Assembly: GCA_039683095.1 (NCBI GenBank)
Contig: JBDKSB010000012.1
Location: 92,293-156,292 of the forward strand
DNA: 64,000 bases
From: Acidobacteriota bacterium
Lineage (GTDB): Bacteria > Acidobacteriota > Aminicenantia > Aminicenantales > Saccharicenantaceae
Direction of reading: 5' to 3'
The notes under the pieces: model-generated
Databases searched by the model: none
Seen by the model: the letters and a program-made list of their open reading frames with translations, nothing else
What the model was told of the DNA's origin: nothing
Shown: piece after piece, positions 1 to 18,792 of the stretch
Numbering within the stretch: the stretch's first letter is position 1
Layout: each line of letters begins with the position of its first letter
Translations under genes and position numbers: made by a program

Positions 1-2976
1 GCCGCGCAAAAAGCAGACGGGCGGCGTCCCATAGGTGACGCAGCCGGTCTCCCCGACGCCCTCTAGCAGGCCCGTCTCGTCCTCGAACATGTAAAAATAC
101 TTTGCACCGCCCTGGCTCCCGTAGCCTCCCGGCCCCGGCTCCCCGTCGCCGCCGTGCCGGCCGGTCCCCCATCCATTTCCGCCGGACGCGCCGCAGCCGC
201 TGCCGCCGTTGCCCCCGGGCTGGGGGTGGTAGGTCAGCCGCTGGCGGGCGTCGACGACCCGGACGACAAGCTCGACCATGGCCCCGGCGCAGTCCTTGAG
301 GTCCTTGACCCGGAGGTCCGGCCGCTTGCCCTGATAGAGATCGAGGTCGTCCCCGTCCGGCAGGAAGCCGAGGGACTCGAAGAGCATGCGTCGCTTCTCG
401 TCCGAGGCGATGTCGGCCACCTCCTCCATGTGCTCGAGACCCCGGAAGTAGCGCAGGACCTGGCGCGTCCGCCGCGGCTCGAGCGAGTCGAAGACGCCGG
501 CCTTGATGAGCGTCAGGAGCTCGGCCTTGCCGGGCTTCGTCCGGGCCAGGACGTCCTCGATCGACAGGTACTCGCCGCCCGCCGCCCGCTCGTCGAGGAG
601 GCGCTCGATCGTCTTGAGGCCCAGTCCCTTGATCGAAGCCAGGCCGACGCGGATGGCGCCGTTCTCGACCTCGAAGCCGGCGGCGCTACGGTTGGCGTCG
701 GGCCCGAGGATGCGCAGGCCGTTCCGCTTGGCCTCGGCGACGTACTCCGCGAGCTCGTAGTAGCCGCCGCCGGCGTTGAGCACGGCCGCGAAATAGGCCG
801 CCGGCCGATGGACCTTGAGATAGACGGCCTGGTAGGCCATGGCGGCGTACGAGGCGCTGTGGGCCTTGTTGAAGGAGTAAGAGGAGAACTTCTCCATGGT
901 CTTCCACAGCCGCTCGACGTCAGGCGCGGCGTAGCCGCGCTCGCCGGCCTCGCGGGCGAACTTCGCCCGGAGCGCCGGGTCGCCGCCCCGCCGTTTCTTC
1001 AGGCTCCGCCGCAGCAGGTCGCCTTCCTCAGGGGGCAGGCCGGCCACCCGCTCGGCGATCTGCATGACCTGCTCCTCGTATAGAAGGATGCCGCCGGTCT
1101 CGGGCAGGATGCGGGCCAGGAAGGCGTCGTCGCCGGGCCAGGGCCCGTTCGGCGGGGACGCGGAGCCCTGGGGAGCACTCCCGGGTCTCGCGGCTCCCCG
1201 CCCGCCGCGCCGCCGCAGGAGAGCTTCCTTCATGCCGCTCTCGGTCGGCCCCGGCCGGACCAGGGCCAGGGCCTGGGTGATCTCGTGGATGTCCGCCGGC
1301 TTCATGCGCCGCAGCAGGTTCATCATGGCCGGGCTTTCGACCTGGAAACAGCCGACCGTCCGGGCCGCCCGCAGGGCCGCGTACGTCGCCGGGTCGTCCG
1401 GCGGCAGGCTCCCCAGCCGGAGCTTCTCCTTCGTCTCCGAGATGGCCGCCAGGCCCCGCACCGAGAGGAGATCGAGCTTGATAAGCCGCAGGTCCTCGAC
1501 CGCGTCCTTGTCGAAGTGGGTCATGCGCAGGCCCTTGGCCGAGGTTTCGAGGGGCAGGTAGCGCTCGACCGGCCCGGGGGTCAGGATGACGCCGCCGACG
1601 TGGAGCGAGATCTCGTGGTAGACGTCCTGGAGCTCCGCGGCCAGCTTCCAGGCCTCGAGCCGGCCCGGGGCCGGGGCGGCCAGCCGCAGGCTCGACGGCT
1701 CGGCGAAATACGGCACGCGCTTCGACTGGCTCCGGGCCTCCTCGGGCGGCGCGCCGAAGGCCCGGAGCGTCTCGTAGATGGCCGAGCGGCCCCCGAAATC
1801 CTTCAGCGAGCAGACGTAGGCCGCGCCGGTCCGGCCCGCGCCGTAGCGCTCGAGGACGTAGGCCAGGACCTCGTCGCGGCGCCGCGAGTCGAAGTCGATG
1901 TCGATATCGGGCGGATCGGGCCGGCCGCGGTTGAGGAAGCGCTCGAAATAGAGGTCGAACTCCAGGGGGTTGACGTGGGAGATGCCGAGGAGCCAGGCCA
2001 GGAAGGACGAGGCCCCCGAGCCCCGCAGGTTGTGGAGGATGCCGCGGCGGCGGGCGAACTCGACGATGTCGTGGACGACGAGGAAGTACGGCCCGAAGCC
2101 CGACTGCTCGACCGCCGCCAGCTCGCGCCGGGCCCGCTGGCGCTCCTTCCAGGTCAGGCTCGGCGCGGCGGCCAGCCGCTCCGTGACGGCCTGGCGCAGG
2201 GTCCGGGAAAAGAGATCGGCCGGCAGGCTGGGGACGACGTTCTCGAAGACGAACGAGCATTTCCCGGTGACCTCGAACGTCCGGGCCAGGGCCTCCTTGG
2301 CGGCCTCGCCGAAGCGGCGCGCGGCCAGGGCGTCCTGGTCCGGGCCGAAGAGACTGACCTGGCCCAGGAGCCGGTCGCGTTCCGGCGGGAACGGGACCTT
2401 GTCCTCGATGGCGTGGAGAAGGATGAGGCGCTCCGGGCTGGTCAGGTACTTGACCGGGTTGGCCCAGACGACGGGCAGATCGGCGAAAGGCGAAGGGAAA
2501 TGGGGGACGTGTCCCCCATTTTCCGGTCCCCCGTTCTCCAGGATCCGCTCGAAGTTCCCGAAGTCCGCCCCGATGTACAGATCGCCCGGGGCGAGTTTCT
2601 CGCGCAGGTCGGCCAGCATGGCGGCCTCGGCGTCCCCGTTCCCCGCGTCCCCCTCCGGGACGTAGATCGCGATGAGCCCCGACGCGTCGCGGACCTCCCG
2701 GCGGTTGAAGATCTCCATGAGGTTCGAGTAGCCCTCGCGCTCCTTGACCATGAAGACGAACCGCCGCCCCCCGATCTCGAGCTCGCAGCCGAAGACGGGC
2801 CTGAACCCGGCCGCCGGGGCGATGCGCTTCCACTTGCCCCAGCCGTAGATGTTGCCGATATCGGCAAGGGCCGCGGCCGCGAGCCGCTTGCCGCGGGCCC
2901 AGGCGGCCGCCTCCTCGAGCGTGACGCTGCCCTTCCCCCGGCTGTAGACCGAATGAAGGCGGAGCGGCGTGAACAT
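1..2976 (-). CDS. dnaE2: Error-prone DNA polymerase III alpha subunit DnaE2, partial; C-terminus lies beyond the window start
   Basis: Hand translation of minus strand from ATG at 2976 gives ~990 aa with no stop. PHP-like N-terminus (LRLHSVYS...GKGSV). Pol III alpha hallmark FNKAHSASYAAMAYQAVYLKVHRPAAYFAAVLN. RBS GAGAGGAG upstream. Missing from ORF track because it has no in-window stop. Confidence 0.85.
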   Translation of the reverse strand, partial: MFTPLRLHSVYSRGKGSVTLEEAAAWARGKRLAAAALADIGNIYGWGKWKRIAPAAGFRPVFGCELEIGGRRFVFMVKEREGYSNLMEIFNRREVRDASGLIAIYVPEGDAGNGDAEAAMLADLREKLAPGDLYIGADFGNFERILENGGPENGGHVPHFPSPFADLPVVWANPVKYLTSPERLILLHAIEDKVPFPPERDRLLGQVSLFGPDQDALAARRFGEAAKEALARTFEVTGKCSFVFENVVPSLPADLFSRTLRQAVTERLAAAPSLTWKERQRARRELAAVEQSGFGPYFLVVHDIVEFARRRGILHNLRGSGASSFLAWLLGISHVNPLEFDLYFERFLNRGRPDPPDIDIDFDSRRRDEVLAYVLERYGAGRTGAAYVCSLKDFGGRSAIYETLRAFGAPPEEARSQSKRVPYFAEPSSLRLAAPAPGRLEAWKLAAELQDVYHEISLHVGGVILTPGPVERYLPLETSAKGLRMTHFDKDAVEDLRLIKLDLLSVRGLAAISETKEKLRLGSLPPDDPATYAALRAARTVGCFQVESPAMMNLLRRMKPADIHEITQALALVRPGPTESGMKEALLRRRGGRGAARPGSAPQGSASPPNGPWPGDDAFLARILPETGGILLYEEQVMQIAERVAGLPPEEGDLLRRSLKKRRGGDPALRAKFAREAGERGYAAPDVERLWKTMEKFSSYSFNKAHSASYAAMAYQAVYLKVHRPAAYFAAVLNAGGGYYELAEYVAEAKRNGLRILGPDANRSAAGFEVENGAIRVGLASIKGLGLKTIERLLDERAAGGEYLSIEDVLARTKPGKAELLTLIKAGVFDSLEPRRTRQVLRYFRGLEHMEEVADIASDEKRRMLFESLGFLPDGDDLDLYQGKRPDLRVKDLKDCAGAMVELVVRVVDARQRLTYHPQPGGNGGSGCGASGGNGWGTGRHGGDGEPGPGGYGSQGGAKYFYMFEDETGLLEGVGETGCVTYGTPPVCFLRG

Positions 2977-2995
2977 GGCGCGTCCCCCGCTCCTC

Positions 2996-4258
2996 TCATT
3001 TCGTCAGCGACGCCGTCTTGAGGACGTAGCCCCGCCGCGGGTCGAAGGCGTAGACGCCGTCGAGCATCTTCTCCCGGGCCGTCAGCACCGCGCCGAAGCC
3101 GTACTTGTCGCGGACCTTGTCGATGGCCCCGCCCAGCCGCTCCGGCCGTTCCGAGTAGGGCTCGAAAAGGGCCAGGGGCCGGACGCGCACCAGGTCCGCG
3201 GCCTTGACCCCGACCAGGCGCAGGGCCAGCCGCGAGCCCTCGACGAGCTCGAGGAACAGCTCCTCGGCGACCTTGTAGATCTTGCCCATCTCCTGGAGCG
3301 GCGAGAGCATCAGGCGGCGCTTGATCTCGGTCTTGAAGTCGGCGTAGCGGGCCTTGACCTCGATGACGTGGGCGTAGAGCCGGTCCTCGCGCAGGGCCAG
3401 TGTCAGCCGGTCGCAAAGGTAGGCCAGGTGGGCCAGGAGCAGGCGGCGGTCCCAGAGGTCCTCGAGGAAGGTCGTCTCGCGCGAGACCGACTTGGGCAGG
3501 GTCGGCGCGACCAGGGGCCGGCTGTCGATGCCGCGCGACTGGAGGTAGATGTCGTCGCCGGCCTCGCCGAAGAGCGTGTGCAGGGTCCCCCGCGGCAGCT
3601 CCCAGAGCTGGCCGATCGTGTGGACGCTCATCAGCCGCAGGACGACCTGGGCCTTGGGGCCGATGCCGGGCAGGGCCTCGATGCCGAGGTCGCGGAGGTA
3701 GTCCCGCTCCTCGCCTTCGCGGATCTCGAAGAAGCCGGCCGGCTTGGCCCGGCGGGTGGCCAGCTTGGCCAGGATCTTGTTCGGCGCCGCCCCGGCCGAG
3801 ACCGTGACCCCGATCTCGCCCTCGACCCGCCGCTTGAGCTCGCGGGCCGCGTCCACGAACGAGGGGTAGATGTGGCCGCAGCGGGCGAGGTCCAGGTAGG
3901 CCTCGTCGAGCGAGGCCTCCTCGACGTCCGGGGTGGCGGCGTGGAGGACGCGGAAGAAGCGCTCGGAGAAGGCTTGGTAGACCTGGTAGTTGCCGCGGAG
4001 GAAGACGCCCTCGGGGCAGAGCTTATAGCATTCGCGGAGGGGCATGCCGGAGTGGACGCCGAACTTGCGGGCCTCGTAGGAGCAGGTCGAGGCCACGCCC
4101 CGTTCGTGGGCCAGGCCGCCGACGATGACCGGCTTGCCCGCGAGCGAGGGGTCGAGCAGGACCTCGACGGAGGCGAAAAAGGCGTCGATGTCGACGTGGA
4201 CGATGTAGCGCCGCGGCCGTTCTTTCGACAAAGACACCTCTGCTTCCCTTTCTCGCAC
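2996..4258 (-). CDS. dinB: Y-family DNA polymerase (DinB/Pol IV-like) with catalytic acidic residues intact
   Basis: N-terminal VDIDAFFASVE and SLDEAYLD motifs, identical to the catalytic D, D and E motifs of Pol IV. 420 aa. Lies immediately between lexA and dnaE2. Confidence 0.85.
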   Translation of the reverse strand: MREREAEVSLSKERPRRYIVHVDIDAFFASVEVLLDPSLAGKPVIVGGLAHERGVASTCSYEARKFGVHSGMPLRECYKLCPEGVFLRGNYQVYQAFSERFFRVLHAATPDVEEASLDEAYLDLARCGHIYPSFVDAARELKRRVEGEIGVTVSAGAAPNKILAKLATRRAKPAGFFEIREGEERDYLRDLGIEALPGIGPKAQVVLRLMSVHTIGQLWELPRGTLHTLFGEAGDDIYLQSRGIDSRPLVAPTLPKSVSRETTFLEDLWDRRLLLAHLAYLCDRLTLALREDRLYAHVIEVKARYADFKTEIKRRLMLSPLQEMGKIYKVAEELFLELVEGSRLALRLVGVKAADLVRVRPLALFEPYSERPERLGGAIDKVRDKYGFGAVLTAREKMLDGVYAFDPRRGYVLKTASLTK

Positions 4259-4275
4259 GGTCCGATTCCCTTTTT

Positions 4276-4319
4276 CTCCCCTTCCGCGAAGGGGAGCGTG
4301 ATCTCGGGGGTCTCCCCCG
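4276..4319. other. Two adjacent GC-rich palindromes between lexA and dinB (CTCCCCTTCCGCGAAGGGGAG and CGGGGGTCTCCCCCG)
   Basis: Perfect inverted repeats read directly in the lexA-dinB intergenic region. Could be an attenuator/terminator or a protein-binding site. Confidence 0.3.
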
Positions 4320-4320
4320 T

Positions 4321-4947
4321 TCAGTACTTTCTCATGACGCCGATGACCCGGCCCAGGATCCTGGCCGAGGGCGCCTCGATCGGCTGGAAGGCCGGGTTCT
4401 CCGGGACGAGGAAGACCCGGCCGTCGGCCCGGCGCAGGCGTTTGAGCGTGACCGAGCCGTCGTCGAGCATGGCCACGACCATCTCGCCCGAGTTGGCCAT
4501 GTTGGTCCGCTCGAGCAGGACGTGGTCGCCGTCGTCGATGTAGGCGTCGATCATGCTCTTGCCGTCGACCCGGATGCAGAAGACGTTGCCCCGGCGGCGG
4601 CCGACCATCCAGCCCGGCACGTCCATGGCCTCGCCGGTCGTGTCGAACGACTCGCGCGGCCCGCCGGCGGGGACGAGCCCGGCCACCGGCACCCGGACCT
4701 GGCTCTCGACCAGGGCCGGGAGGCCCTTCACCCGGATCTCGCCGTCCTCGCGGCTGATGTAGCCCTTGCGCTCCAGGCTCTGGAGGTGCTTGAGGACGGC
4801 CGAGGGGCTGGGGATCTTCAGGGCCGCCCCCAGCTGGCGGATGGTCGGGGCGTAGCCGTGCCCGAGGACGAACTCCTCGACGGCCTCGAGGACCTTGGCC
4901 TGCCGGACGGTCAGCTCGCGTCTCAGCGTGTTTACCATTTTGTTCAC
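4321..4947 (-). CDS. lexA: LexA repressor (S24 peptidase family)
   Basis: Winged-helix N-terminus, cleavage-site region VAGLVPAGGP, and Ser/Lys dyad region GDHVLLER...KRL. 208 aa. Confidence 0.9.
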   Translation of the reverse strand: MNKMVNTLRRELTVRQAKVLEAVEEFVLGHGYAPTIRQLGAALKIPSPSAVLKHLQSLERKGYISREDGEIRVKGLPALVESQVRVPVAGLVPAGGPRESFDTTGEAMDVPGWMVGRRRGNVFCIRVDGKSMIDAYIDDGDHVLLERTNMANSGEMVVAMLDDGSVTLKRLRRADGRVFLVPENPAFQPIEAPSARILGRVIGVMRKY

Positions 4948-5020
4948 CTTTTAAAAAATAAGCCTGCCGCGGGCGTTTGTCAAGAGGAAATCGAACGAAA
5001 GGGAAAGAATGCCCCGGGAT

Positions 5021-5948
5021 CAGTCAAGCGTCCATTGTAGCGAAAAGGCCAGGACCTCAGGGAAGCCGCTGGGCTTCTCCCGGACGCAATAGAGGCGGTC
5101 GTTCTTGATAATGACGTCCCGCAGGGGTGGCCCGAGCTGGAGCCTCTGATAGCCCAGGGCTGTTCTGAGGACGCGAACGCCGCCCGGCGAGAACATGTCG
5201 CAGACGCCGGCGCCTGTCGCCTGGTTTTGCCCGTATCCGACGGCACAGAGCCGGTCATGATCGTCTGCCAGGAGGGCCAGGAACGGCGGGAATGTTCTTG
5301 GGAAGGCGAGGTTCCTCCAGAACGGGTGGTCCGGGGGGAGCGAATGGAGGCCTCACGGAATCCGTGAGGGACGTCGATCGCCGGATAGTCCGCCAGGATC
5401 TTGCGGATCAGGCGGCCGCTCAAGTCATAGACTTCGATCTCGCGACTCGAGGCCATGGACGTCAAGAAAAAGGAGGTTCGCGAAACCGCGACCAGGGGAA
5501 AATCGATGAAGGGGGTCTTGAGCTCGTCCTCGGCCGGAACGGGATACGCCTTCAGCTCTCGCCGCCTGGAAAAATCCGGACCGAACAGGCCGACGCCGTA
5601 TGAGGAAAATTCGAGAGTCTCCGGTTTCACCCGCACATAGGCAATGACATAATCCCCGTTGGCGAGCGGCAGGAAGCCGTGCGGAAAGGGAAAAAGGAGG
5701 TCCGGCAGGGCGACCGCGCGAACCACCGTCCCCTCCGCATTGAAGAACAGGACCTTCCGGCCGCCCAGGCTGACCACAGGGATCTCTCCCCCGGCATTCA
5801 GCCGCATGAACCGGGGATTCTGCACCTCTCCGGGCCCCTGGCCGATAGGGCAAAATGAGCGCACGGACCGGCCGCGGTCGTCGAACACGAAAACGGTATT
5901 CCCCGGCGTCGCGCCGCGCCGGGTGGTGTTCGCCGGCCCGCTGGGCAT
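5021..5948 (-). pseudogene. Six-bladed beta-propeller (NHL/TolB-like) gene with frameshift in a G6 homopolymer tract; N-terminus and signal peptide absent
   Basis: ORF 4980..5948 reads as credible propeller sequence for ~215 aa then turns to junk. Shifting +1 at the GGGGGG run (5333-5338) restores a credible C-terminus: ...NLAFPRTFPPFLALLADDHDRLCAVGYGQNQATGAGVCDMFSPGGVRVLRTALGYQRLQLGPPLRDVIIKNDRLYCVREKPSGFPEVLAFSLQWTLD, stopping at 5021. Confidence 0.6.
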
Positions 5949-6198
5949 CCACGGCCTGACGGTCGTCGTGGATCATGGCCTGGGGTTGTTCAGTATGTAT
6001 TGTCATTTGAGCCGGATCGATGTCGCGTTGTCCCAGGGCGTGACGCGGGGCGAAACGCTCGGGCTTTCGGGGTCCACGGGCCTGGCCGGCGGCGACCATC
6101 TCCATTTCGCCATGCTCGTCCACGGGACGTTCGTCAATCCCGTGGAATGGTGGGATGCCCACTGGATCCGCGACAACGTCGAGCTCAAGACGAGATGA
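5917..6198 (+). pseudogene. 3' remnant of an M23 (LytM-type) peptidase gene, only the C-terminal ~95 aa
   Basis: VVFAGPLGIHGLTVVVDHGLGLFSMYCHLSRIDVALSQGVTRGETLGLSGSTGLAGGDHLHFAMLVHGTFVNPVEWW matches the M23 C-terminal core including the HxH zinc motif. Upstream in-frame sequence is junk. Overlaps the propeller fragment on the opposite strand. Confidence 0.6.
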
Positions 6199-6279: not shown

Positions 6280-6394
6280 CTTGACTTCTCCGCCGGCTAT
6301 CGGCTACATTCCGGCCATCGCTAATCCCCGCCACAGGAGAGCAGAGAGCCCTGGACATCAAGGATGTCATCGACATCCGCTTATCCATCCGGGC
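6280..6394 (+). repeat. Direct repeat copy 1 (~115 bp): degenerate copy of the nitroreductase promoter plus 5' coding region, start codon mutated to CTG
   Basis: cttgacttctccgccggctatcggctacattcc...aatccccgccacaggag...ggacatcaagga(t/c)gtcatc...atccatccgggc is shared with 7923-8038 at roughly 85% identity. Confidence 0.8.
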
Positions 6395-6592
6395 TGAGCG
6401 GAGAAAGGAAGACGATCTCGTCGAAACGCCGCGTGATCTGGTTCACGAGGCGATGCTGTTCGGCCACGTCAACGACGGCGTCGCCGGCGTCGATGCCGGC
6501 TCTCAGATCACCTGCCTGGGCCAGGGCGCCGAGAGGATGAGGCCGCAGGTTGCATGAAGGCTAGCCAAAGAAACGGAGTGAGGGTTACTAAA

Positions 6593-7627
6593 ATGAATAA
6601 GAACCTCTGCTTGGCTATTTTCGGGATCCTGATAAGTGCTTCCATTTATGATGCCGCCATAGCACAAGAGATCAGCAGCCAGGAAATAAACTTTGAATAT
6701 TTATGGAACACATTCGATAAAAAGTATGCTCTATTTGTCCCCAAGAGAGTTGACTGGGATGCGTTGTACAGGATTTATCGGCCAAAGATATCCTCTCAGA
6801 CTTCAGAAACTGAACTCTTTGACATTATGGCCGCCTTGCTTAGCCACTTGAATGACAATCACGTCCGGTTAGAGTCTCCAAATCGTTCTTTCCGGTCGGG
6901 CGTTTTGGGTGCGATGCCACCGATGGATGATTTCTTTCCTCTCATCAAAACCAAATATCTTCATGGGTACAAAGATCGTGCTGCTGGCATGTTTTCCGGT
7001 TGGTTAACAGATTCCATCGGTTATTTTCATATCCAGTATTTTGAGAACGTGGAACAGAGCTCCGATGTCATCGACCAAATTCTTTATGAGTTTAAGGATG
7101 CAAAAGGAATTGTTATCGATGTTCGCGAAAACTACGGAGGCGACGACGAGGTCGGCAAGACAATCGCCGATCGTTTCGCCGACAAAAAGCGTTTGTATAT
7201 GCTGAAGCGTTGCAAGAATGGCAATGGGCATAATGACTTTGGCCCGCCTCAAAAATGGTATGTGGAACCGGAAGGACCTATTCAATACACCAAGCCTGTG
7301 ATCCTTCTCATCAATCGTTTCTCTGTCAGTGAAGCCGAGGTTTTCACTTTGGCCATGCGCGCATTGCCTCAGGTTACGGTTATTGGGGATGCGACTTCAG
7401 GTGTTTTTGCTGATGTTGATAAGGATATTCTTCCTAACGGCTGGACATTTAGGTGTCCATATAACCTTATTGAAGACGCCGCGGGCTTTTGTTGGGAAGG
7501 AATAGGGATTCCGGCAGATCTTCATCAAACGATTTCACAAGAAGATATTGCCGGCGGACATGAGAGGGTTCTTGACCTGGCAATAGCATTTTTAAACGCA
7601 AATAAACGCGCCGCGATTCGAAAATAA
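6593..7627 (+). CDS. S41-family C-terminal processing peptidase with signal peptide; low-GC, horizontally acquired
   Basis: Signal peptide [25 protein letters not shown]. Motifs [13 protein letters not shown] and [17 protein letters not shown]...VIGDATSG match the S41 catalytic region. GC about 40% against ~70% flanks. Alternative start at 6554. Confidence 0.8.
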
Positions 7628-7896
7628 TGACATTGCAGCCGATGCTGCGGGAACATCACGGATATGTCCGATCCTACGACGCGGTACGGCGGCATGTCCG
7701 GACGCGCTTTCCGGAGTTTTGCCGGAAGGGGGCTCAGCAGATGACCCCGGTGGCCGGCGCGATCGCGCGTCGGGCCCAGCCGTTGCCGATCGCTCCGAAG
7801 CTCAAGTTCCTCTTCGTGGCGCCGCCCGCGGTGGCCGGCTCGTTCGGGCTCGCTTGGCTGCTCACCCATGTCCCCGGGATCAAACGCGTCCTCTGA
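7627..7896 (+). CDS. Hypothetical small protein (89 aa), high-GC, inside the inserted segment
   Basis: ORF with native-like codon usage between the S41 gene and repeat copy 2. No recognisable family. Could be a gene remnant. Confidence 0.2.
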
Positions 7897-7922
7897 TCCT
7901 CGGGCCGCAACGAAACCGACAT

Positions 7923-8038
7923 CTTGACTTCTCCGCCGGCTATCGGCTACATTCCGACTGTTCGCCAATCCCCGCCACAGGAGACGAGAAGACCATGGAC
8001 ATCAAGGACGTCATCTACACCCGCCGATCCATCCGGGC
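7923..8038 (+). repeat. Direct repeat copy 2: functional promoter and first ~15 codons of the nitroreductase gene
   Basis: See copy 1. Contains TTGACT, an 18-bp spacer and TACATT, followed by ATG at 7995. Confidence 0.8.
7924..7953 (+). promoter_or_regulatory. Sigma70-like promoter (TTGACT, 18-bp spacer, TACATT) for the nitroreductase gene
   Basis: Read directly from sequence. About 40 bp upstream of ATG at 7995. Duplicated in degenerate form at 6281. Confidence 0.5.
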
Positions 8039-8561
8039 CTATGAGAGCAAGCCCGTCGACCGCGGCCTGATCCAGCAGGTGATCGAGGCCGCCGTGCAGG
8101 CGCCGTGCGGCATGGGCATCGAGCCCTGGAAGTTCGCCGTCATCCAGGACCGCGGGATCCTGGCCGACCTGTCCGGCCGGACGAAAGCCCACATGCTCGG
8201 CCTGATCGACCAGGTGCCGCCGCTCGCGAGGTACCGGGAGACGTTCGAGAGCCCTGAGTTCAACGTCCTCTACGGCGCGCCCGTGCTGGTCCTCATCTGC
8301 CGTTCGACGCAGAATCCAAGCCCGACGGCCGACATCGACTGCGCCCTGGCCGCCGAGAACCTGATGCTCGCGGCCCGCAGCCTCGGTCTCGGCACGTGCT
8401 GGATGGGCTTCGTGGGAACATACCTCAAGACCGACGAGGCCAAGAAGCGTTTCGGCATCCCGGAGGACCACCAGGTCGTGGCGGCGATCGCCGCCGGCTA
8501 TCCGGCCGTCGAGTTCACGACCAAGGCCAGGAATCCCCCGGCGATGATCTTCTGGAAATAG
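7995..8561 (+). CDS. Nitroreductase family protein
   Basis: [21 protein letters not shown]...WKFAVIQD matches the nitroreductase N-terminal signature. 188 aa. Confidence 0.8.
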
Positions 8562-8816: not shown

Positions 8817-10004
8817 TTATTCGGTCAGGGCGCCGGAATATTTCAAGACCCTTCGATTCGGAGGGGCGTAGAAGGTTCCGGGATTGGACGTATAAACGGC
8901 GCCTTCAAAAACCCCTTCGTTGCCGCCGGCGAATTTATGGGGCTCGGCCGCGCCCTTGGGGACCAGGACAAGCTGTCGCTTGAAGTCGCGGCGGTAGGAA
9001 CGCTGGTCGTCGCCGATCTTGAAGTAAAAAGCGTTCCGCAGGATGAACGGCTTCCATTCGGCGCAGACGGCCGTTTCCGGAACGCATCGGACGGGCTTGT
9101 CGGCGGCGAAGGCCGCCTGCAGCTCGAGGCCGCTGAGAGGGACGCCGTCGAGCTCTCCGATCGTTCCGTATTGGGCGTCGGCCAGGACCCATTTATGGAA
9201 TTGCTCCAGCCAGACCTCGACGGCGGAATGGGCCTCGCTCCGTGTTTCCACGTCCCGGGGGAGCAGGTTGAGCACCCGCGCGGGCATCCCGTAGGCCTTG
9301 GCGACTCCGGCCAGGACGACGGCGTAGTCCCGGCAGATGAAACGGCCGCCTGCCTTGGCCTCCCGGAGGATCGTCAGCGGGTCGGTTTTCGAGGCTGTCT
9401 GGTCCGAGCTGTGTTCCCACCGCGTGCTGACCCATGCCGTCAGGCGGCGCAGTCTCTCGTAATCGTCCTTGGAACCGGCGATGACCGCGTCGATCGAGAA
9501 TTCCTTCCGCATCGCCGCGAATTCCGGGGTCTCCGGACCGTCGAACGTCAGATCGAACGGCGGTGGCGTCTGAGTTTCGTCCCAGGCCAGCGGACGGGGG
9601 CCGAATCGGGATTTCAGGTCGGCGAGGAAGGCCTTGAATTCCGGATCCGCGCGCAGGGAATCCAGATCGGAATCCGCGGCATACTTATCGTAATCCGTGT
9701 ATCCGGCTCCGACGGCCTCGCGGGCGGCCGCGATGGCGCGCGATTTCTCACCGGAGAGCGCAAGGACGCAGGCTTTATTGTAAAGGATGCCGGCCTTGAT
9801 CAGAGGGTCCCCGGCGCTCGCCGCGAGACCCATCTGACGTTCCAGGACGTTAAGGGCCCCGCTCCAGTTCCCCGCTTTGACGCATCGGGCCAGCTCTTCG
9901 TTCGTGGACCGGAACTGGTCCTCCAGGGACGCCTGCCCGGCGGCGGCCAGGCAGAGGCAGGCGGACATCAGGCCAACTGCGATCATTTTTTCGACGAGGC
10001 GCAT
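8817..10004 (-). CDS. Secreted transglutaminase-like cysteine protease superfamily protein
   Basis: Signal peptide. GRFICRDYAVVLAGVAKAYGMPARVL matches the transglutaminase-core Cys motif, with downstream His (EAHSAVEVW) and Asp. Confidence 0.65.
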   Translation of the reverse strand: MRLVEKMIAVGLMSACLCLAAAGQASLEDQFRSTNEELARCVKAGNWSGALNVLERQMGLAASAGDPLIKAGILYNKACVLALSGEKSRAIAAAREAVGAGYTDYDKYAADSDLDSLRADPEFKAFLADLKSRFGPRPLAWDETQTPPPFDLTFDGPETPEFAAMRKEFSIDAVIAGSKDDYERLRRLTAWVSTRWEHSSDQTASKTDPLTILREAKAGGRFICRDYAVVLAGVAKAYGMPARVLNLLPRDVETRSEAHSAVEVWLEQFHKWVLADAQYGTIGELDGVPLSGLELQAAFAADKPVRCVPETAVCAEWKPFILRNAFYFKIGDDQRSYRRDFKRQLVLVPKGAAEPHKFAGGNEGVFEGAVYTSNPGTFYAPPNRRVLKYSGALTE

Positions 10005-10159
10005 GGGACCTCCTCTAAGGGTACTCCTTTATGAACGAAGAACAGCCATAAAAGGTTGTCGAAGGAAAGCCGCGAGATATTATCAAATCTATTTATATCA
10101 TTGTAATCAGCAAGTTGCGGCTCCTGGCCCGGCCAAGCCGGGCTAAGCCCCCGAAACTG

Positions 10160-10168
10160 TGGTATAAT
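10160..10168 (+). promoter_or_regulatory. Extended -10 promoter element TGGTATAAT for the RRM protein gene
   Basis: TGnTATAAT consensus read directly. Implies a ~165-nt 5' UTR before ATG at 10337. Confidence 0.45.
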
Positions 10169-10336
10169 GGTGCTGTTCATTAGCAAAGGGAAACCTCAGC
10201 TATCAACACCTGAATGACTAAAGGAAGGGGCCAGAGGCCCTGATCGGTTTCGTACTCCTCTCCTTTACGGCGTTCAAACATCTTTAAGAACCGGGAAGGC
10301 TCGGGAGAGTCTTTCCATCGTCGAAAGGAGACGAGA

Positions 10337-10624
10337 ATGAACATCTATGTGGGTAACCTATCCACCACCGTCAACGAGAACGACCTGAGGGAAGTCTTCC
10401 AGGCGTTCGGCGCGGTCTCGACGGCCGCCGTCATCAAGGACAAGTTCAGCGGGGAATCCCGCGGCTTCGGCTTCGTCGAGATGCCGAACAAGGACGAGGC
10501 CGATAAGGCCATCTCCATGGTCAACGGCAAGGACCTGAAGGGCCGCGCGGCCAAGGTCAACGAGGCCAAGCCCCGGACGAGCTCGACGCGGTCCGGCGGC
10601 GGTTTCGGCGCCCGGCGGTACTAA
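10337..10624 (+). CDS. RRM-type RNA-binding protein (glycine-rich tail)
   Basis: RNP-2 motif IYVGNL, RNP-1 motif RGFGFVEM, C-terminal GGGFGARRY. Confidence 0.9.
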   Translation: MNIYVGNLSTTVNENDLREVFQAFGAVSTAAVIKDKFSGESRGFGFVEMPNKDEADKAISMVNGKDLKGRAAKVNEAKPRTSSTRSGGGFGARRY

Positions 10625-10667
10625 GACCCCCGGAGAGTCCGGGGTCGCAAACATACGACTCCACAAA

Positions 10668-10699
10668 GGGAGCGGCCATCCGGCCGCTCCCTTTTTTTA
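10668..10699 (+). terminator. Rho-independent terminator (GGGAGCGGCC...GGCCGCTCCC followed by T7)
   Basis: 10-bp perfect stem followed by TTTTTTT, immediately after the RRM gene. Confidence 0.8.
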
Positions 10700-10736
10700 T
10701 TCTTCTCCCGATTTAGGGATATTTTCGAGCCGGGAA

Positions 10737-10797
10737 AATGGGGACGTTTCCATTTTTTCCGGATCGGGGTTTTGGGAAAAACAGAAACGTCCCCATT
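10737..10797. other. Long hairpin (14-bp perfect stem AATGGGGACGTTTC / GAAACGTCCCCATT, ~33-nt loop with internal TTTTTCC/GGAAAAA pairing)
   Basis: Read directly. Located in the convergent gap between the RRM gene and icd. On the minus strand it sits just 3' of icd, so it is probably the icd terminator or a structured element. Confidence 0.4.
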
Positions 10798-10835
10798 ATC
10801 CCCCGACGGCAGACGTCCGGCGAAAACGCCGTGTC

Positions 10836-13067
10836 TTAGAGCGCGTCGATGATCGCGTTCAACGCCGCGCACGGCCGCATGGCCGCCGCGAGCTTTTCTT
10901 GGTCCGGGTGGTAGTAGCCGCCCATGTCGACAGGCTTGCCCTGGACCGCGATCAGGCCGGCGTCGATCTCGGCCGCCTTCTCTCCCAGGGCCCTGGCCAC
11001 CGGCGCGAACCGGGCCCTGAGCTCCTGGTCCTTGTCCTGGGCGGCCAGGGCCTCGGCCCAGTAGAGGGCCAGGTAGAAGTGGCTGCCCCGGTTGTCGATC
11101 TGGCCGACCTTGCGGGCCGGCGACTTGCCGTTGTCCAGGAACTTGCCGATGGCCGCGTCGAGGGCCTCGGCCAGGACCTTGGCCTTGTCGTTCTTGAACG
11201 CGCCGGCCAGGTACTCGAGCGAGGCGGCAAAGGCCGAGAACTCCCCGAGCGAGTCCCAGCGCAGGTAATTCTCCTTCTTGAACTGCTGGACGTGCTTCGG
11301 CGCCGAGCCGCCAGCGCCCGTCTCGAAAAGCCCGCCGCTGGCCAGCAGGGGCACGATCGACAGCATGTAGGCGCTGGCGCCGATCTCGAGGATCGGGAAG
11401 AGATCGGTCAGGTAGTCGCGCAGGACGTTCCCGGTGACCGAGATGGTGTCCTGGCCCTTGCGGATGCGCTCGAGGGAGTACTTCATGGCCTCGACAGGCG
11501 GCATGATCTTGATCGTCAGCCCCGTCGTATCGTGGCCCTTGAGATACTCCTCGACCTTGGCGATGACCTGGACGTCGTGGGCCCGGCCGCGGTCCAGCCA
11601 GAAGACCGCCGGGGCGCCGGTCGCCCTGGCCCTTTTGACCGCCAGCCCGACCCAGTCCCGGATCGGGATGTCCTTGGCCCGGGACAGGCGCCAGACGTCG
11701 CCGGCTTCGACCGCGTGCTCCATGAGGACCCGGCCGCCGGCGGCGACCACCCGGACCGTGCCGTCGAAGGGGATCTCGAAGGTCGTCGGGTGGGAGCCGT
11801 ATTCCTCGGCCTGTTGCGCCATCAGCCCGACGTTCGGGACGCTGCCCATGGAGGCCCGGTCGAAAGCGCCGTGCTGCCGGCAGTCCTCGATGATCGTCTT
11901 GTAGATCGTCGAGTAGCAGCGGTCCGGGATCATGGCCTTGGTCTCATGGAGCTTCCCGTCCGGGCCCCACATCCGCCCCGACTCGCGGACGACGACCGGC
12001 ATGGAGGCGTCGACGATGACGTCGCTCGGGACGTGCAGGTTGGTGATCCCGTGGTCGGAATCGACCATGGCCAGCGGGGGCCGCGCGGCATAGACGGCCT
12101 TGATGTCGGCCTCGATCTCGGCCTGCTTGGCCTCGGGCAGGGCCTTGATCTTGGCGTAGAGGTCGCCGAGGCCGTTGTTGGGATTGAAGCCGCACTCCCT
12201 GAGCGCAGCGGCGTGCTTGGTCAGGGCCGGCTCGAAGAAGACCGAAACGGCGTGGCCGAAGAGGATGGGATCGGAAACCTTCATCATGGTCGCCTTGAGG
12301 TGGAGCGACAGCAGCAGGCCCCCGGCCCTGGCGTCCTCGATCTGGGAGGCGTAGAAGGCCCGCAGGGCTTTCTTGCTCATGAAGGTCCCGGACAGGATCT
12401 CGCCGTCGAGCGCGGTCAGTTCGTCCTTGAGGACCTTGACCCCGCCGTCACGGCCCTGGATCTCGATCCGGAAACCGACGCCCTGGCCCACGGTCACGGA
12501 CTTCTCGTTGCCGTAGAAGTCGCCGCCGGTCATGTGGGCGACGTGGGCCTTGGACTCCTGGGTCCAGGGGCCGAGGGGGAGCATCTTCGCGGGGTTCTTC
12601 TGGGCATACTTTTTGACCGAAACGGGGGCCCTCCGGTCGGAGTTCCCCTGGCGCAGGACCGGGTTGACGGCGCTGCCCAGGACCTTGGCGTAGCGGGCCT
12701 GGATCTCCTTCTCAGCCTCGGTCTTGGGGATCTCGGGATAGTCGGGAACCTTGTAGCCCTGCGACTGGAGCTCGGCGACGGCCTCCAGCAACTGGGGCAG
12801 CGAAGCGCTGATGTTCGGCAGCTTGATGATGTTGGCCTCGGGCTTCAGGGCCAGCTCGCCCAGGAAGGCCAGGTTGTCGGGCAGGCGCTGGGCCTCGGTC
12901 AGGCAGTCGGGGAAGTTGGCGATGATGCGGCCGGCGAGCGAGATGTCGCTCTTTTCGACCTCGATCCCCGTCCCCTTGGTGAATCCCCGGATGATCGGAA
13001 AAAGCGAATAGGTGGCCAGGTACGGCGCTTCGTCGGTTTCCGTCCAGTAGATCTTGCGGGCGGTCAT
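10836..13067 (-). CDS. icd: Monomeric NADP-dependent isocitrate dehydrogenase
   Basis: 743 aa. Characteristic monomeric-IDH sequence throughout. Confidence 0.9.
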
Positions 13068-13348
13068 GGCTCCTCCTTGGATTCGGGCGAATCTCTGCTT
13101 TCCCAGCCGGGCGATACGGCCTGATGCGCGACGTCCGCAGGGACGGCGTCAAGGCCCGTCGCCTGGAGGGGAGGGTAAGGTAACCGAAATGGACCTGGGG
13201 TGTCAACGTGCGGCCATCCTCTTTTTCAGGACGCCTTCCTGTGGCGCTGAATGCATCCTGCCCTTGGACGGGCATGCGCCTGCCGGAGAGGCCTCGCATC
13301 GGGGGGAGAGCGGGAAGGCGGGGTTTGGCATGCTTCTTGAAATGAGTC

Positions 13349-14692
13349 TTGATGAAAGGGAGGTGCAAGATCCGATCCCCAAAGCGGAAATGGAGCTTGT
13401 CCGCGGGCGCGGCCGCCGGCTTGGCCGCGGCGCTCGTCCTCCTGTCGTTCCAGGCCGCAACTGCCCAGGACATCGTCCGTCACGGCGAGAAGCTAAGCCT
13501 GGACCGGTGCGTCCAGATCGCCCTGGAGCGCCTGCCCGCGATCCTGGCCGCCCGGGCCGCGGCCGAAGTGGATCGCAACGTCGTTCGCGAGGCCGAGTCG
13601 GCCTTTTATCCCCAGGTCGGCTGGTCCGCCTCGATCGGCCGGGCCTCGGTCGGGCCCAGGACCTCGCTCGGCATCCAGACGGACGCGGTGACCTATAATT
13701 CCTATTCGACGGGCCTCACGCTCAGCCAGAACATCTACGATTTCGGGAGGACCTCGGGCCAGGTGCGCATCGACAAGCTGAGCTACAGCGCCGCGCTCGC
13801 GGACGTCGAGACCGCTTCCCAGCAGGCCGTCTTCGACGTCAAGCAGAGCTTCTACGGGGTCCTCCAGGCCGAGCGGAACAGGGACGTCGCGGAGGAGGCG
13901 GTCAGGCAATACGAGCTCCGCCTCGAGCAGGCCCGGGGCCTCTTCGAGGTCGGGCTGCAGCCGAAATACGACGTCACCAAGGCCTCCGTGGATCTCGGGA
14001 ACGCCAGGGTCAGCCTGATCAATGCCCGGAACGCCGTCCGGCTGGCCCTGGCGGCGCTGAACGGCGCCATGGGCCTCACCGGCCATATCGATTACGGCGT
14101 CGAGGGCGATCTCGCCTTCGCGGCCTACGGCCTGACCCTCGAGGAGGCGCTGGCCCAGGCCTACAAGAACAGGCCCGACCTGGCCGCCCTGGCCACCCGG
14201 CGCGAGGCAGCCGAGAAGGCCGTCGCCCGGGTCCGGGCGGGGTTCTTCCCGGCCCTGAGCGGCGCGGCGTCCTACGATTACTCCGGCAACGCCTTTCCGC
14301 TCTCGCGCGGCTGGAGCCTGTCCCTGAACCTGGGGCTCTCGCTCTTCAGCGGCTTCCAGACGAAGGCCCAGGTCGACGAGGCCCGGGCGAACATCGAGGT
14401 CCTCCGGGCCGGCGAGGAGGCCGGGCGCCAAGCCGTCTATCTGGCGGTCCAGAAGGCCTATCTCGATCTCAAGCAGGCCGAGGAGGTGGTCCCCGTGGCC
14501 GAGCTCAACGTGACCGCCGCACAGGAGAACTACGATATCGCCAGCGGAAGCTACAAGGAGGGCGTCGGAGACCCGATCCAGGTCGCCGACGCGAGCGCCG
14601 CGCTGATCAGCGCGAAAACCGCCTATATCCAGGCCCTTGCCGACTGCAAGGTTTACCGCGCCAGCCTCGAGCTGGCCATGGGGCTGAGATGA
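13349..14692 (+). CDS. Outer membrane efflux protein (TolC-like OMF)
   Basis: Signal peptide. Two-repeat OEP architecture. First gene of the efflux operon. Confidence 0.8.
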   Translation: MMKGRCKIRSPKRKWSLSAGAAAGLAAALVLLSFQAATAQDIVRHGEKLSLDRCVQIALERLPAILAARAAAEVDRNVVREAESAFYPQVGWSASIGRASVGPRTSLGIQTDAVTYNSYSTGLTLSQNIYDFGRTSGQVRIDKLSYSAALADVETASQQAVFDVKQSFYGVLQAERNRDVAEEAVRQYELRLEQARGLFEVGLQPKYDVTKASVDLGNARVSLINARNAVRLALAALNGAMGLTGHIDYGVEGDLAFAAYGLTLEEALAQAYKNRPDLAALATRREAAEKAVARVRAGFFPALSGAASYDYSGNAFPLSRGWSLSLNLGLSLFSGFQTKAQVDEARANIEVLRAGEEAGRQAVYLAVQKAYLDLKQAEEVVPVAELNVTAAQENYDIASGSYKEGVGDPIQVADASAALISAKTAYIQALADCKVYRASLELAMGLR

Positions 14693-15843
14693 ACAAACAA
14701 GCTTCAAGGATGACGATCGCCGGGGCCCTGGTTCTGGCGGCCGCCTGGTCCGCCGCCTGCAAGGGCAACGGGGAGAAGCTGGTGACGGAGAACGTCACGC
14801 GCGGCGACATCACCACCGCCGTCACGGCGGCGGGGACGGTCAACGCCGTCACCAGCGTCAATGTCGGGACCCAGGTCTCGGGCCGGGTCACGACGCTCTT
14901 CGCGGACTTCAACTCCCCGGTCACGAAGGGGCAGGTCATCGCCCTGATCGACCCGTCCCTTTTCCAGGCCCAGGTCGACCAGGCCCGGGCGAACCTGGCC
15001 AACGCCAGGGCCAACCTCGAAAAAGCGCAGGCCACGGAAACCGACGCCAGGCGCACCTGGGACCGCTATAAGAACCTCTTCGGGCGCGACCTGGCGGCCA
15101 GGAGCCAGATGGACGCGGCGGAAACGGCCTACCTGACGGCCCATGCCTCGACCCTGGCCGCCCAGACCCAGGTCGACCAGACCTCGGCCGCCCTCCGGCT
15201 GGCCGGGACGAACCTCTACTACACGAAGATCCTCTCCCCGGTCGACGGCGTCGTCATCTCCCGGAGCGTCGATGTCGGCCAGACCGTAGCGGCGAGCTTC
15301 CAGACCCCGACCCTCTTCGTCATCGCCGCGGACCTGACCAAGATGCAGATCGACACGACGGTGGACGAGGCCGACATCAGCACGGTCAAGGTCGGCCAGG
15401 ACGTCGAGTTCGCCGTCGACGCCTATCCCGACGAAACGTTCAAGGGCTGGGTCTTCCAGGTCCGCAACGCCGCCGTCACGGTCCAGAACGTCGTCACCTA
15501 CGACGTCGTCGTGACGGTCGACAACCGGGACCTGAAGCTCAAGCCAGGCATGACCGCCGACGTCTCGATCATCACGTCGCGGGCCAAGAACGTCCTGCGG
15601 GTTCCCAACACCGCGCTGAGGTTCAAGCCCGCGGCCAAGGGCCAGGCGGCGGCCGCCGCCGCCCGGGGTTCGGCGGTCTGGGTCGAGGAGAACGGCCAGC
15701 CCAAGCGCGTGCCGGTCAGGATCGGGTCGAGCGACGGGACGTTCACCGAGCTCGTCGCCGGCGATCTCAAGGAGGGCCAGCCCGTGATCACCGGATCGGC
15801 GGCCAAGACGAGCCAGGCGACTCCGGGTTTCAGGATGTTCTGA
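14689..15843 (+). CDS. macA: Efflux periplasmic adaptor (HlyD/MacA family membrane fusion protein)
   Basis: Lipoyl, beta-barrel and coiled-coil features. 4-bp overlap with the upstream gene. Confidence 0.8.
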   Translation: MNKQASRMTIAGALVLAAAWSAACKGNGEKLVTENVTRGDITTAVTAAGTVNAVTSVNVGTQVSGRVTTLFADFNSPVTKGQVIALIDPSLFQAQVDQARANLANARANLEKAQATETDARRTWDRYKNLFGRDLAARSQMDAAETAYLTAHASTLAAQTQVDQTSAALRLAGTNLYYTKILSPVDGVVISRSVDVGQTVAASFQTPTLFVIAADLTKMQIDTTVDEADISTVKVGQDVEFAVDAYPDETFKGWVFQVRNAAVTVQNVVTYDVVVTVDNRDLKLKPGMTADVSIITSRAKNVLRVPNTALRFKPAAKGQAAAAAARGSAVWVEENGQPKRVPVRIGSSDGTFTELVAGDLKEGQPVITGSAAKTSQATPGFRMF

Positions 15844-15844
15844 G

Positions 15845-17808
<1,964 letters not shown>

Positions 17809-17854
17809 GCGGGCCTTCGGTCCCCGCCTTCCCCGGGGAACGCTGGTCCGGGGG

Positions 17855-18601: not shown

Positions 18602-18727
18602 GAGGTTCCCTCCATATCCATTATCGCTTCGTTATAACAACGTCCGCCTTCGCGAACCCGTTTCGATTTAAACACCTTCCGCGACGGCGGTCAAGGCGCC
18701 GAGGATCCCGGACCGCGGCCGCCGCGG

Positions 18728-18756
18728 ATTGACATTCCCTCGCGCCGACCATATGA
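18728..18756 (+). promoter_or_regulatory. Near-consensus sigma70 promoter TTGACA-17-TATGAT
   Basis: Read directly. About 37 bp upstream of the PHP-domain gene start at 18793. Confidence 0.5.
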
Positions 18757-18792
18757 TTTCCGCTTTATTCCCTAAGAAAGGTGCCCTCGATT

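Follow-up and report, generated by a model that had tools for sequence, protein, structure and literature searches.

In the canonical lexA-imuA-imuB-dnaE2 (ImuC) cassette (Erill 2006; Warner 2010; reviewed in PMC6511836), a LexA-linked Y-family gene lies directly upstream of a gene for a second homologue of the DNA polymerase III (Pol III) alpha subunit, and the presumed role of the cassette is damage-induced translesion synthesis. These traits are shared by a cassette at the beginning of a 64,000-nucleotide stretch of the genome of an Acidobacteriota bacterium (assembly GCA_039683095.1, contig JBDKSB010000012.1, positions 92,293 to 156,292 of the forward strand), hereafter called the window. 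Its first 4.95 kb hold three co-directional open reading frames (ORFs) on the minus strand: lexA, a Y-family polymerase gene (polY) and a DnaE-type gene (dnaE2). In contrast to the canonical cassette, imuA is lacking, the Y-family protein has an intact catalytic site and no ImuB-C, and the second polymerase is not of the DnaE2A type. We consider it probable that the three genes form a self-regulated SOS translesion-synthesis operon of the 'PolY-DnaE2B-RecA' type, which is independent of ImuA and ImuB.

Cassettes without ImuA, in which an active Y-family polymerase is combined with DnaE2, were described by Timinskas and Venclovas in 2019 (PMC6511836), including a system of Bacteroidetes with two apparently active polymerases. 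A survey from 2026 (PMC12926913) sorts DnaE2 proteins into the groups A, B and X, with DnaE2B occurring only in genomes devoid of imuA and imuB, and lists PolY-DnaE2B-RecA, with the active PolY of Bacteroidetes, as one of 11 module types with AlphaFold-Multimer support. Neither publication mentions Aminicenantes or Aminicenantia, nor do their supplements. SOS-type control of dinB-dnaE operons in Bacteroidetes was reported by Sanchez-Osuna et al. (PMC8565304). A first-pass annotation of the window had called the cassette non-canonical. It does depart from the order (lexA)-imuA-imuB-dnaE2, but the ImuA-less type as such was already published in 2019 and 2026.

The PolY-DnaE2B-RecA module of Bacteroidetes (e.g. 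Cellulophaga algicola ADV50500/ADV50501) also lacks ImuA, ImuB and ImuB-C, and its PolY likewise carries a clamp motif followed by a motif resembling the RecA N-terminus (RecA-NT). Judged by its sequence, the cassette of the window fits this type with regard to the active PolY, the RecA-NT-like motif and the conserved adjacency of the two polymerase genes. It differs in its host, which belongs to the class Aminicenantia of the Acidobacteriota, and in starting with a canonical lexA, whereas Bacteroidetes have no canonical LexA (PMC8565304). In addition, its DnaE2 falls into a clade of its own, with no more than about 37-39% identity to any sequence outside, and its PolY ends in an invariant tail.

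Two further groups of cassettes are similar in part. The iPolY-DnaE2B-RecA cassettes (gbDinB2-like; Nitrospira japonica, Citrifermentans) also comprise lexA and a Y-family gene followed by DnaE2B, without imuA, but their Y-family partner has lost the catalytic residues that PolY of the window retains. A cassette of the order lexA-DUF72-iPolY-DnaE2B was observed on the mobilizable plasmid NZ_AP021877.1 of Desulfosarcina ovata (L082, 3339-9114), where iPolY is annotated as 'hypothetical protein' and reads HINVADF and DDGH at the two catalytic motifs. A DUF72 gene is also present in a second lexA-dnaE2 locus (L207), and DUF72 may be a recurrent companion of such cassettes. Geobacter sulfurreducens has lexA-(imuB-C)-polY operons (Jara 2003, as described in PMC6511836), which are autoregulated and in which one transcript covers lexA and an active Pol IV-type gene; the same is presumably the case in the window. 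The Geobacter operons differ in having a standalone ImuB-C gene and no dnaE2, and their LexA box is the palindrome GGTT-N10-AACC (PMC8565304), whereas a direct repeat is found in the window.

Organisation of the cassette

The gene lexA (minus strand) extends from position 4321 to 4938 if translation starts at an ATG (205 amino acids), or to 4947 with the GTG given in the list of ORFs (208 amino acids). The ATG, which is the start called in an identical 7.5-kb public Logan contig (L001), is the likelier of the two. Based on its sequence, the product is a LexA repressor: it scores 167.9 bits against the lexA equivalog TIGR00498 (cut-off 110.95) and contains the Pfam domains LexA_DNA_bind and Peptidase_S24. 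Self-cleavage is predicted: residues 89-94 form the cleavage site VPAG-GP, and the Ser/Lys dyad is found in GKSMID and TLKRL.

The second gene, polY, occupies positions 2996-4258 (minus strand) and encodes 420 amino acids when read from the listed GTG. Its relatives are 407-413 amino acids long, which suggests that the true start is situated approximately 7-10 codons further downstream. The dnaE2-type gene (positions 1-2976, minus strand) was identified with Pfam and runs past the start of the window, with the first 992 of its 1013 codons inside. The remaining 21 codons were obtained from the Logan contig. The spacers measure 62 bp between lexA and polY and 19 bp between polY and dnaE2. The gene order, coordinates, motifs and spacing of the first-pass annotation were thus right to within 1 bp; the lexA-polY gap had been given as 63 bp, while the 19 bp stand. 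Its placement of lexA next to the Y-family gene is confirmed as well, and lexA heads the unit behind the sole sigma70-like promoter and a strongly conserved repeat.

The Y-family polymerase

PolY contains the Pfam domains IMS, IMS_HHH_1 and IMS_C and reaches 298.7 bits against the NCBIfam Pol IV equivalog NF002677, which is above the cut-off of 256. The best matches in the PDB (phmmer) are Pol IV chains, namely 7yll (3.7e-73, 249.9 bits) and E. coli DinB 4ir1 (4e-49). In BLASTP comparisons, the identity is 35-37% (210-228 bits) to PolY2 of Bacteroidetes, which is the nearest of the full-length references compared, and 33% (169 bits) to E. coli DinB, compared to 23% and at most 40 bits for ImuB. 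Close homologues of PolY carry the name Candidatus Aminicenantes.

Two catalytic motifs are present on the minus strand. VDIDAFF (residues 22-28, positions 4175-4195) holds the catalytic D23 and D25 and the steric gate F28, aligned with D8, D10 and F13 of E. coli DinB. SLDEAYLD (residues 116-123, positions 3890-3913) holds the catalytic D118 and E119, aligned with D103 and E104. All 69 PolY orthologues retain the residues D8, D10, F13, Y79, D103, E104 and K157 (E. coli numbering), which two ImuB references have lost. PolY is hence classified as a Pol IV/DinB-type enzyme that is predicted to be catalytically active. This agrees with the earlier proposal that the gene retains all three catalytic acidic residues and seems to encode a bona fide Pol IV, as borne out by the NF002677 score, the Pol IV chains and the weak similarity to ImuB.

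Three ordered elements follow the little-finger domain in every PolY orthologue: RPL(A/S)LFEP, ERLGxAVDxVRxKYGFGSxLT and RG(F/Y)VLKTASLT(K/R). The first includes RPLALF (positions 3164-3181, minus strand), in which P, L, L and F are invariant among the orthologues; owing to its resemblance to the known QLxLF-type motif it is regarded as a putative beta-clamp-binding motif. The second belongs to a strongly conserved segment of residues 369-403 (ERLGGAIDKVRDKYGFGAVLT..., positions 3050-3154, minus strand). Profile-profile comparison with hhalign aligned this segment of the C-terminal PolY profile with residues 6-40 of the RecA N-terminal profile (E = 3.4e-4), and full-length BLAST likewise placed it opposite the RecA-NT region of Bacteroid-PolY2. 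The register is that expected from PMC6511836, in which the RecA-NT motif was found in most C-terminal extensions of Y-family proteins (Timinskas and Venclovas).

The third element is the C-terminal tail (positions 2999-3034, minus strand). Among 24 sequences with 72-93% identity, R409, G410, L413, K414, T415, A416, S417, L418 and T419 are invariant. The tail is retained in two deep lineages (L206, L216) and, as YGYILRTPSLTK, in a sister lineage (L213), and dnaE2 adjoins polY in all three; it is absent from the sequences of E. coli DinB and Bacteroidetes PolY2. As a hypothesis, we propose that the tail docks onto DnaE2.

The DnaE2-type polymerase

The DnaE-type protein comprises the Pfam domains PHP, DNA_pol3_alpha, DNA_pol3_finger and HHH_6, i.e. 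the PHP, palm, fingers and helix-hairpin-helix parts known from the Pol III alpha subunit. It scores 455 bits against TIGR00594 (cut-off 434). The exact protein is deposited at NCBI as MEN6560760.1, 'PHP domain-containing protein [Acidobacteriota bacterium]', on a 1.29-Mb contig. The palm motif PDIDIDF (positions 1891-1911, minus strand) provides the catalytic D358 and D360, which align with D401 and D403 of E. coli DnaE, while KLDLLSV (positions 1459-1479, minus strand) provides K500 and the third catalytic Asp, D502, aligned with K553 and D555. The equivalents of E. coli D401, D403, D555, K553 and R390 are kept in all of the 67 DnaE2 orthologues. Together with the unbroken conservation of the PolY site in its 69 orthologues, this indicates that both polymerases are selected to stay catalytically competent.

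The family is isolated in sequence space. A search of 1.8 billion cluster representatives yielded one representative at 64% identity and four at 44-45%, one of which carries the source name 'Candidatus Aminicenantia bacterium'. Further full-length representatives showed at most about 46% identity and less than two-thirds of the bits. For typing, the 150 nearest 50%-identity representatives were matched to reference N-termini. The best match was a DnaE2B reference for 116 of the 150 and E. coli DnaE1 for 31, while DnaE2A was the best match for none. The best single reference for the protein itself was DnaE2B of Nitrospira japonica with 149 bits, colinear over residues 2-400; a short N-terminal (PHP) region and colinear alignment are shared with the DnaE2B references. 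The N-terminus of M. tuberculosis DnaE2A aligned in fragments only. In the neighbour-joining tree, the DnaE2 proteins formed a clade nested among DnaE2B-labelled sequences, which was monophyletic in 100 of 100 bootstraps and grouped with DnaE2A in 0 of 100. Going by these sequence comparisons, the polymerase is clearly not of the ImuC/DnaE2A type and is DnaE2B-like. The 'DnaE2' of the first-pass annotation is accordingly not a canonical DnaE2A (454 bits against the error-prone DNA polymerase model with a cut-off of 939).

A different explanation would be that the gene encodes a replicative or back-up Pol III alpha subunit and is adjacent to polY by coincidence. The NCBIfam score is slightly higher for replicative DnaE (487 bits) than for the error-prone model, and the name given by the Prokaryotic Genome Annotation Pipeline does not contain 'error-prone'. 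The replicative score is, however, far below the respective cut-off of 1002 bits, the protein has 1013 amino acids compared to 1160 in E. coli DnaE, and its PHP positions are degenerate. Its nearest sequence neighbours are mostly DnaE2B-like, and the gene belongs to a lexA-headed operon in every relative. Enzymes of the DnaE2 group are non-essential, and every bacterium has a separate DnaE1, DnaE3 or PolC (PMC3919608). We consider a replicative role to be extremely improbable.

The first-pass annotation had also pointed to an unusual Gly-rich insert in the C-terminal region of DnaE2. The insert is real, Gly/Asn-rich and of low complexity, and covers residues 917-955 (positions 112-228, minus strand) between VELVVRVVDAR and KYFYxFEDETG in the C-terminal OB-fold region. 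It is not unusual: DnaE2 orthologues of 932-950 amino acids have a turn of 6-8 residues in its place, and a clade with high G + C content has Gly/Asn/Asp-rich inserts of approximately 10-70 amino acids that differ even between close relatives. A role as functional signature was rejected, as about half of the orthologues lack the insert and it is hypervariable in the others. It is a lineage-specific compositional loop expansion and not a defining feature. Two more low-complexity inserts were observed in DnaE2 at residues 150-162 (positions 2491-2529) and 597-615 (positions 1132-1188), each in under half of the orthologues, so that the high-G + C clade has expanded DnaE2 loops at three places.

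Absence of ImuA, ImuB and ImuB-C

No match to ImuA1, ImuA2 or RecA queries was obtained with tblastn and phmmer in the 64-kb window or in approximately 1 Mb of related loci. The NCBIfam ImuA model, which recognised a control ImuA from a Dinoroseobacter plasmid, did not match the ORFs flanking the cassette in the Logan contig. This contig extends 1.1 kb past the edge of the window, where dnaE2 is followed just by a 72-amino-acid ORF and a gene on the opposite strand. The earlier statement that imuA is missing thus holds between, upstream and downstream of the three genes, and an imuA homologue just beyond the window, which had been named as evidence against it, was looked for in this 1.1 kb and not found. 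In loci with long lexA-polY or polY-dnaE2 gaps, a small ImuB-C-like gene was also searched for; these gaps contain no conserved ORF and only repeat-like fragments.

These results bear on the idea that the cassette is a canonical ImuA-ImuB-DnaE2 mutasome in disguise, with PolY serving as the ImuB scaffold and imuA or an ImuB-C protein encoded elsewhere. Split imuA'-imuB/dnaE2 cassettes do exist in mycobacteria (PMC6511836), and our search covered 64 kb of the source genome in addition to the flanks in relatives. Against it speaks that the catalytic residues, which ImuB proteins lose, are under purifying selection in 69 of 69 PolY orthologues, and that the score is 40 bits against ImuB compared to 169-228 bits against DinB and PolY2. 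Only about 55 residues follow the clamp motif of PolY, which leaves no domain of the size of ImuB-C. Furthermore, DnaE2A, with which the polymerase never grouped in the bootstraps, is the only group reported together with ImuA and ImuB (PMC12926913), and no ImuA- or RecA-like ORF is present in the window or in the approximately 1 Mb of flanks. The assignment of PolY as an ImuB was rejected on the grounds of its intact residues, its low similarity to ImuB and the lack of an ImuB-C-sized domain, and we regard a disguised canonical mutasome as very unlikely.

Conservation of the gene order

A scan for DnaE2 with one genome per species yielded 80 loci with DnaE2 identities of 55-86%, and the named taxa were Aminicenantes or other Acidobacteriota. 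Based on tblastn, all 75 loci with any upstream DNA have polY immediately before dnaE2, and in each of the 67 that extend far enough, polY is in turn preceded by lexA. The distance from the polY stop to the dnaE2 start is 2-26 nt in most loci. The sister lineage L213 has the triad lexA-polY-dnaE2 as well, and so do the deep lineages L206 and L216, at 44-45% identity. As the gene order recurs at every related locus that could be tested, the three-gene arrangement is beyond chance, and the module with active PolY is essentially universal across this class of uncultured Acidobacteriota. In the sister lineage (an unclassified 'MAG: bacterium', GCA_052746355.1; 2760-4978), lexA is followed by an 83-amino-acid ORF, an active PolY with a tail ending in ...ILRTPSLTK, and dnaE2. 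This ORF and a 62-amino-acid ORF in L216 matched no NCBIfam family.

As an alternative, the operon might simply bundle two SOS polymerases, with Pol IV and DnaE2 being co-regulated but acting separately on the clamp and without a mutasome. PolY is a complete, active-looking Pol IV with a clamp motif of its own, and lexA-polY operons without dnaE2 are found in Geobacter (Jara 2003, as described in PMC6511836). In an Aminicenantia lineage with a low G + C content of 36% (L215; Candidatus Aminicenantia metagenome-assembled genome, GCA_052744695.1; 3873-4020), dnaE2 stands alone with neither lexA nor polY upstream, and is still preceded by a repeat box. On the other hand, the polY-dnaE2 junction is very tight and universally conserved at identities of 55-100%, as is typical of subunits made in fixed proportion. 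The additional tail of PolY is invariant, is missing in E. coli DinB and Bacteroidetes PolY2, and is shared by the DnaE2-linked sister lineage. Moreover, complexes of the analogous pair of Bacteroidetes are supported by published AlphaFold-Multimer models (PMC12926913). Taking both sides into account, we consider independent action of the two enzymes to be rather unlikely.

Promoter and candidate operator

The lexA promoter consists of the -35 hexamer TTGACA (positions 4978-4983, minus strand) and the -10 hexamer TATTTT (positions 4955-4960, minus strand). With a spacing of 17 bp and 10 of 12 matching positions, it was the sole sigma70-type match in 6 kb around the cassette. In related loci, TTGACAA is conserved upstream and a TAT(T/C)(T/A)T-type hexamer is found at the same place as the -10 box. 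No convincing internal terminator was detected between lexA, polY and dnaE2.

Just downstream of the -10 box, the 20-bp direct repeat GGTGAACAAAATGGTAAACA (GGTGAACAAAATGGTRAACA; positions 4929-4948, minus strand) extends over the ribosome-binding site and ATG of lexA. It can be written as GGTGAACA-N4-GGTRAACA, i.e. GAAC-N8-GAAC with a period of 12 bp. There is one match in the window compared to 0.00 expected. In the related loci, it occurs once per locus at the start of lexA, with 62 of the 64 sites being exact and two having one mismatch, while the promoter spacer bases and the downstream codons around it vary freely. The full 12-mer GGTGAACAAAAT is duplicated in many loci. We infer that this repeat is a candidate LexA operator, because direct-repeat LexA boxes are known from Alphaproteobacteria (GTTC-N7-GTTC, PMC8565304) and have been linked to Acidobacterium capsulatum, whose LexA box is connected with a laterally acquired alphaproteobacterial lexA in the title of Mazon 2006 (cited in PMC3789691). 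These boxes and the candidate of the window are all direct repeats of GAAC units (GTTC on the other strand). The alphaproteobacterial box has a 7-nt spacer and a period of 11 bp, whereas the clade of the window has N8, a period of 12 bp and the longer conserved unit GGTGAACA. The suggestion to look for a LexA operator in two intervals was fruitful for positions 4898-4960, which contain the repeat, but yielded no promoter or operator match at 4259-4320.

Divergent lineages show other direct repeats at the same position after the -10 box. The two deep lineages L206 (AGGCGAAAATT-AGGCGAAAAT) and L216 (AGGCGAAAAAA-AGGCGAAAAT, about 25 nt upstream of the ATG) have GGCGAAAA units with a period of 11 bp. 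In L215, GAGAACATAAGGCGAACAT has exactly the spacing GAAC-N7-GAAC and is located between a -10-like box and the ATG of the stand-alone dnaE2; because this box is retained upstream of dnaE2, control by LexA in trans is suggested. Only these three deep lineages, L206, L215 and L216, showed the period of 11 bp. In the sister lineage L213, the lexA promoter contains a classical CGAACATTTGTTCG palindrome between its -35 and -10 boxes instead of a direct repeat. A mere constraint from ribosome binding or coding was rejected as an explanation, since it cannot account for the L216 repeat, which sits well ahead of the start codon.

It was also observed that the 20-mer GGTGAACATCGAGGTGAACA recurs in one highly conserved coding region of many high-G + C bacteria (L086-L205), which is unrelated to LexA. 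This serves as a warning that the repeat pattern also arises in coding sequence.

The lexA-polY spacer (positions 4259-4320, minus strand) can form two G + C-rich hairpins, GGGGGAGACCCCC and CTCCCCTTCGCGGAAGGGGAG (RNAfold -27.5 kcal/mol, z = -3.9). In 12 relatives from the high-G + C clade, the two stems are conserved in sequence, almost without covariation, and more distant relatives lack them. The hairpins might serve in intercistronic processing, stability or attenuation. In L035 (4402-4744), L037 (740-1154) and L062 (1556-2118), the lexA-polY spacers are enlarged and share a repeated sequence that translates to MSNATTVERAAAPAFGPACLDATPA..., as though a small mobile or repeat element had been inserted there.

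Proposed function

Under the favoured interpretation as an ImuA/ImuB-independent SOS operon, the single sigma70 promoter would drive lexA, polY and dnaE2 as one transcript. In undamaged cells, LexA would bind to GGTGAACAAAAT-GGTRAACA, downstream of the -10 box and over the ribosome-binding site and start of lexA, and thereby shut off all three genes. Upon DNA damage, filaments of RecA on single-stranded DNA would stimulate self-cleavage of LexA at its Ala-Gly bond. The derepressed operon would then supply two polymerases predicted to be catalytically competent: PolY with its clamp motif, RecA-NT-like motif and tail, and DnaE2, a C-family enzyme with a degenerate PHP domain and without a tau-binding C-terminus. 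By analogy with the modelled system of Bacteroidetes, PolY may act as a hub that docks onto the clamp and RecA and recruits DnaE2, so that ImuA and ImuB would not be needed. PolY probably inserts nucleotides opposite lesions and DnaE2 extends from there. The physical PolY-DnaE2-RecA complex and this division of labour are inferred from the analogous system.

Several observations weigh against this interpretation. The coupling of polY and dnaE2 is not obligatory, as demonstrated by the lone dnaE2 of L215. Nesting of the polymerase within a DnaE2B-rich clade was obtained in only 22 of 100 neighbour-joining bootstraps, and its placement with DnaE2B is hence not robust. The RecA-NT match is statistically modest, with a probability of 38%, and a single-chain AlphaFold2 model of PolY, based on 24 homologues with at least 72% identity, was unusable with a mean predicted local distance difference test score (pLDDT) of 43.8. 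The extent of the search for imuA and imuB, given above, belongs here too. As for the operator, its assignment rests on one orthologous site per genome, which in the main clade overlaps the ribosome-binding site and the first three codons. A search of the window and approximately 1 Mb of related loci (up to 2 mismatches, spacers of 3-5 nt) returned the lexA sites and one probable chance match, but no further copy upstream of other genes. A metagenome scan for GGTGAACABNNNGGTRAACA, with the lexA spacer excluded, gave at least 120 stretches, and the matches listed were coding or tandem repeats from unrelated organisms.

A more far-reaching version is put forward tentatively, as we think it less probable than its opposite. 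Aminicenantia and the unclassified sister lineage may possess their own mutasome free of ImuA and ImuB, in which the PolY peptide (G/Y)(F/Y)(V/I)L(K/R)T(A/P)SLT(K/R) would dock DnaE2 and replace ImuB-C, both polymerases would work as an inserter-extender pair, and LexA would read a direct repeat with a period of 12 bp. If true, this repeat would add a variant to the known types of LexA box.

Further features of the window

The neighbouring genes at positions 8817-21228 encode a transglutaminase-like protein, a monomeric isocitrate dehydrogenase, a TolC/HlyD/MacB-type efflux set and two nitroreductases, one of which lies slightly outside this range at 7719-8561. They are ordinary housekeeping or transport genes without any DNA-repair gene among them, so the cassette does not belong to a larger repair island. 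Scans of the window with Rfam and for tRNAs gave no matches.

Directly upstream of the lexA promoter, an ORF of 322 amino acids (positions 4980-5948, minus strand) shows a weak partial match to a beta-propeller (DUF5128) and an atypical G + C content by codon position. The gene calls of the Logan contig do not include it, and part of it is shared with a called peptidase M23 gene on the opposite strand (positions 5806-6198, plus strand), so that it is probably a gene remnant or non-coding.

At positions 6280-8064, a 1.64-kb segment of low G + C content (approximately 46%, compared to 65-70% around it) carries a peptidase S41/tricorn-C1 gene (positions 6554-7627, plus strand). It is flanked by direct repeats of approximately 140 bp, in which positions 6280-6313 are identical to 7923-7956 and positions 6318-6420 match 7962-8064 at 77%. 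The segment has the appearance of an insertion, with a foreign gene between duplicated flanks.

Significance

The architecture of the cassette is already present in the literature, and current understanding is not overturned. If our interpretation is correct, the locus extends the ImuA/ImuB-independent PolY-DnaE2B-RecA type with active PolY, which was so far documented in Bacteroidetes only. Since lexA is physically inside the operon, the module is tied directly to the classical SOS switch. The locus also supplies a sharply defined candidate operator, a direct repeat of unusual spacing, for a branch of the phylum for which no LexA box was found in the literature searched. With its PolY tail and two intact active sites, it offers a natural test case for how DnaE2 may be recruited without ImuA and ImuB, and for whether both polymerases synthesise at lesions. 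Of the leads obtained, two are the most useful: the direct repeat as a candidate operator, and the possibility that the PolY tail docks DnaE2.

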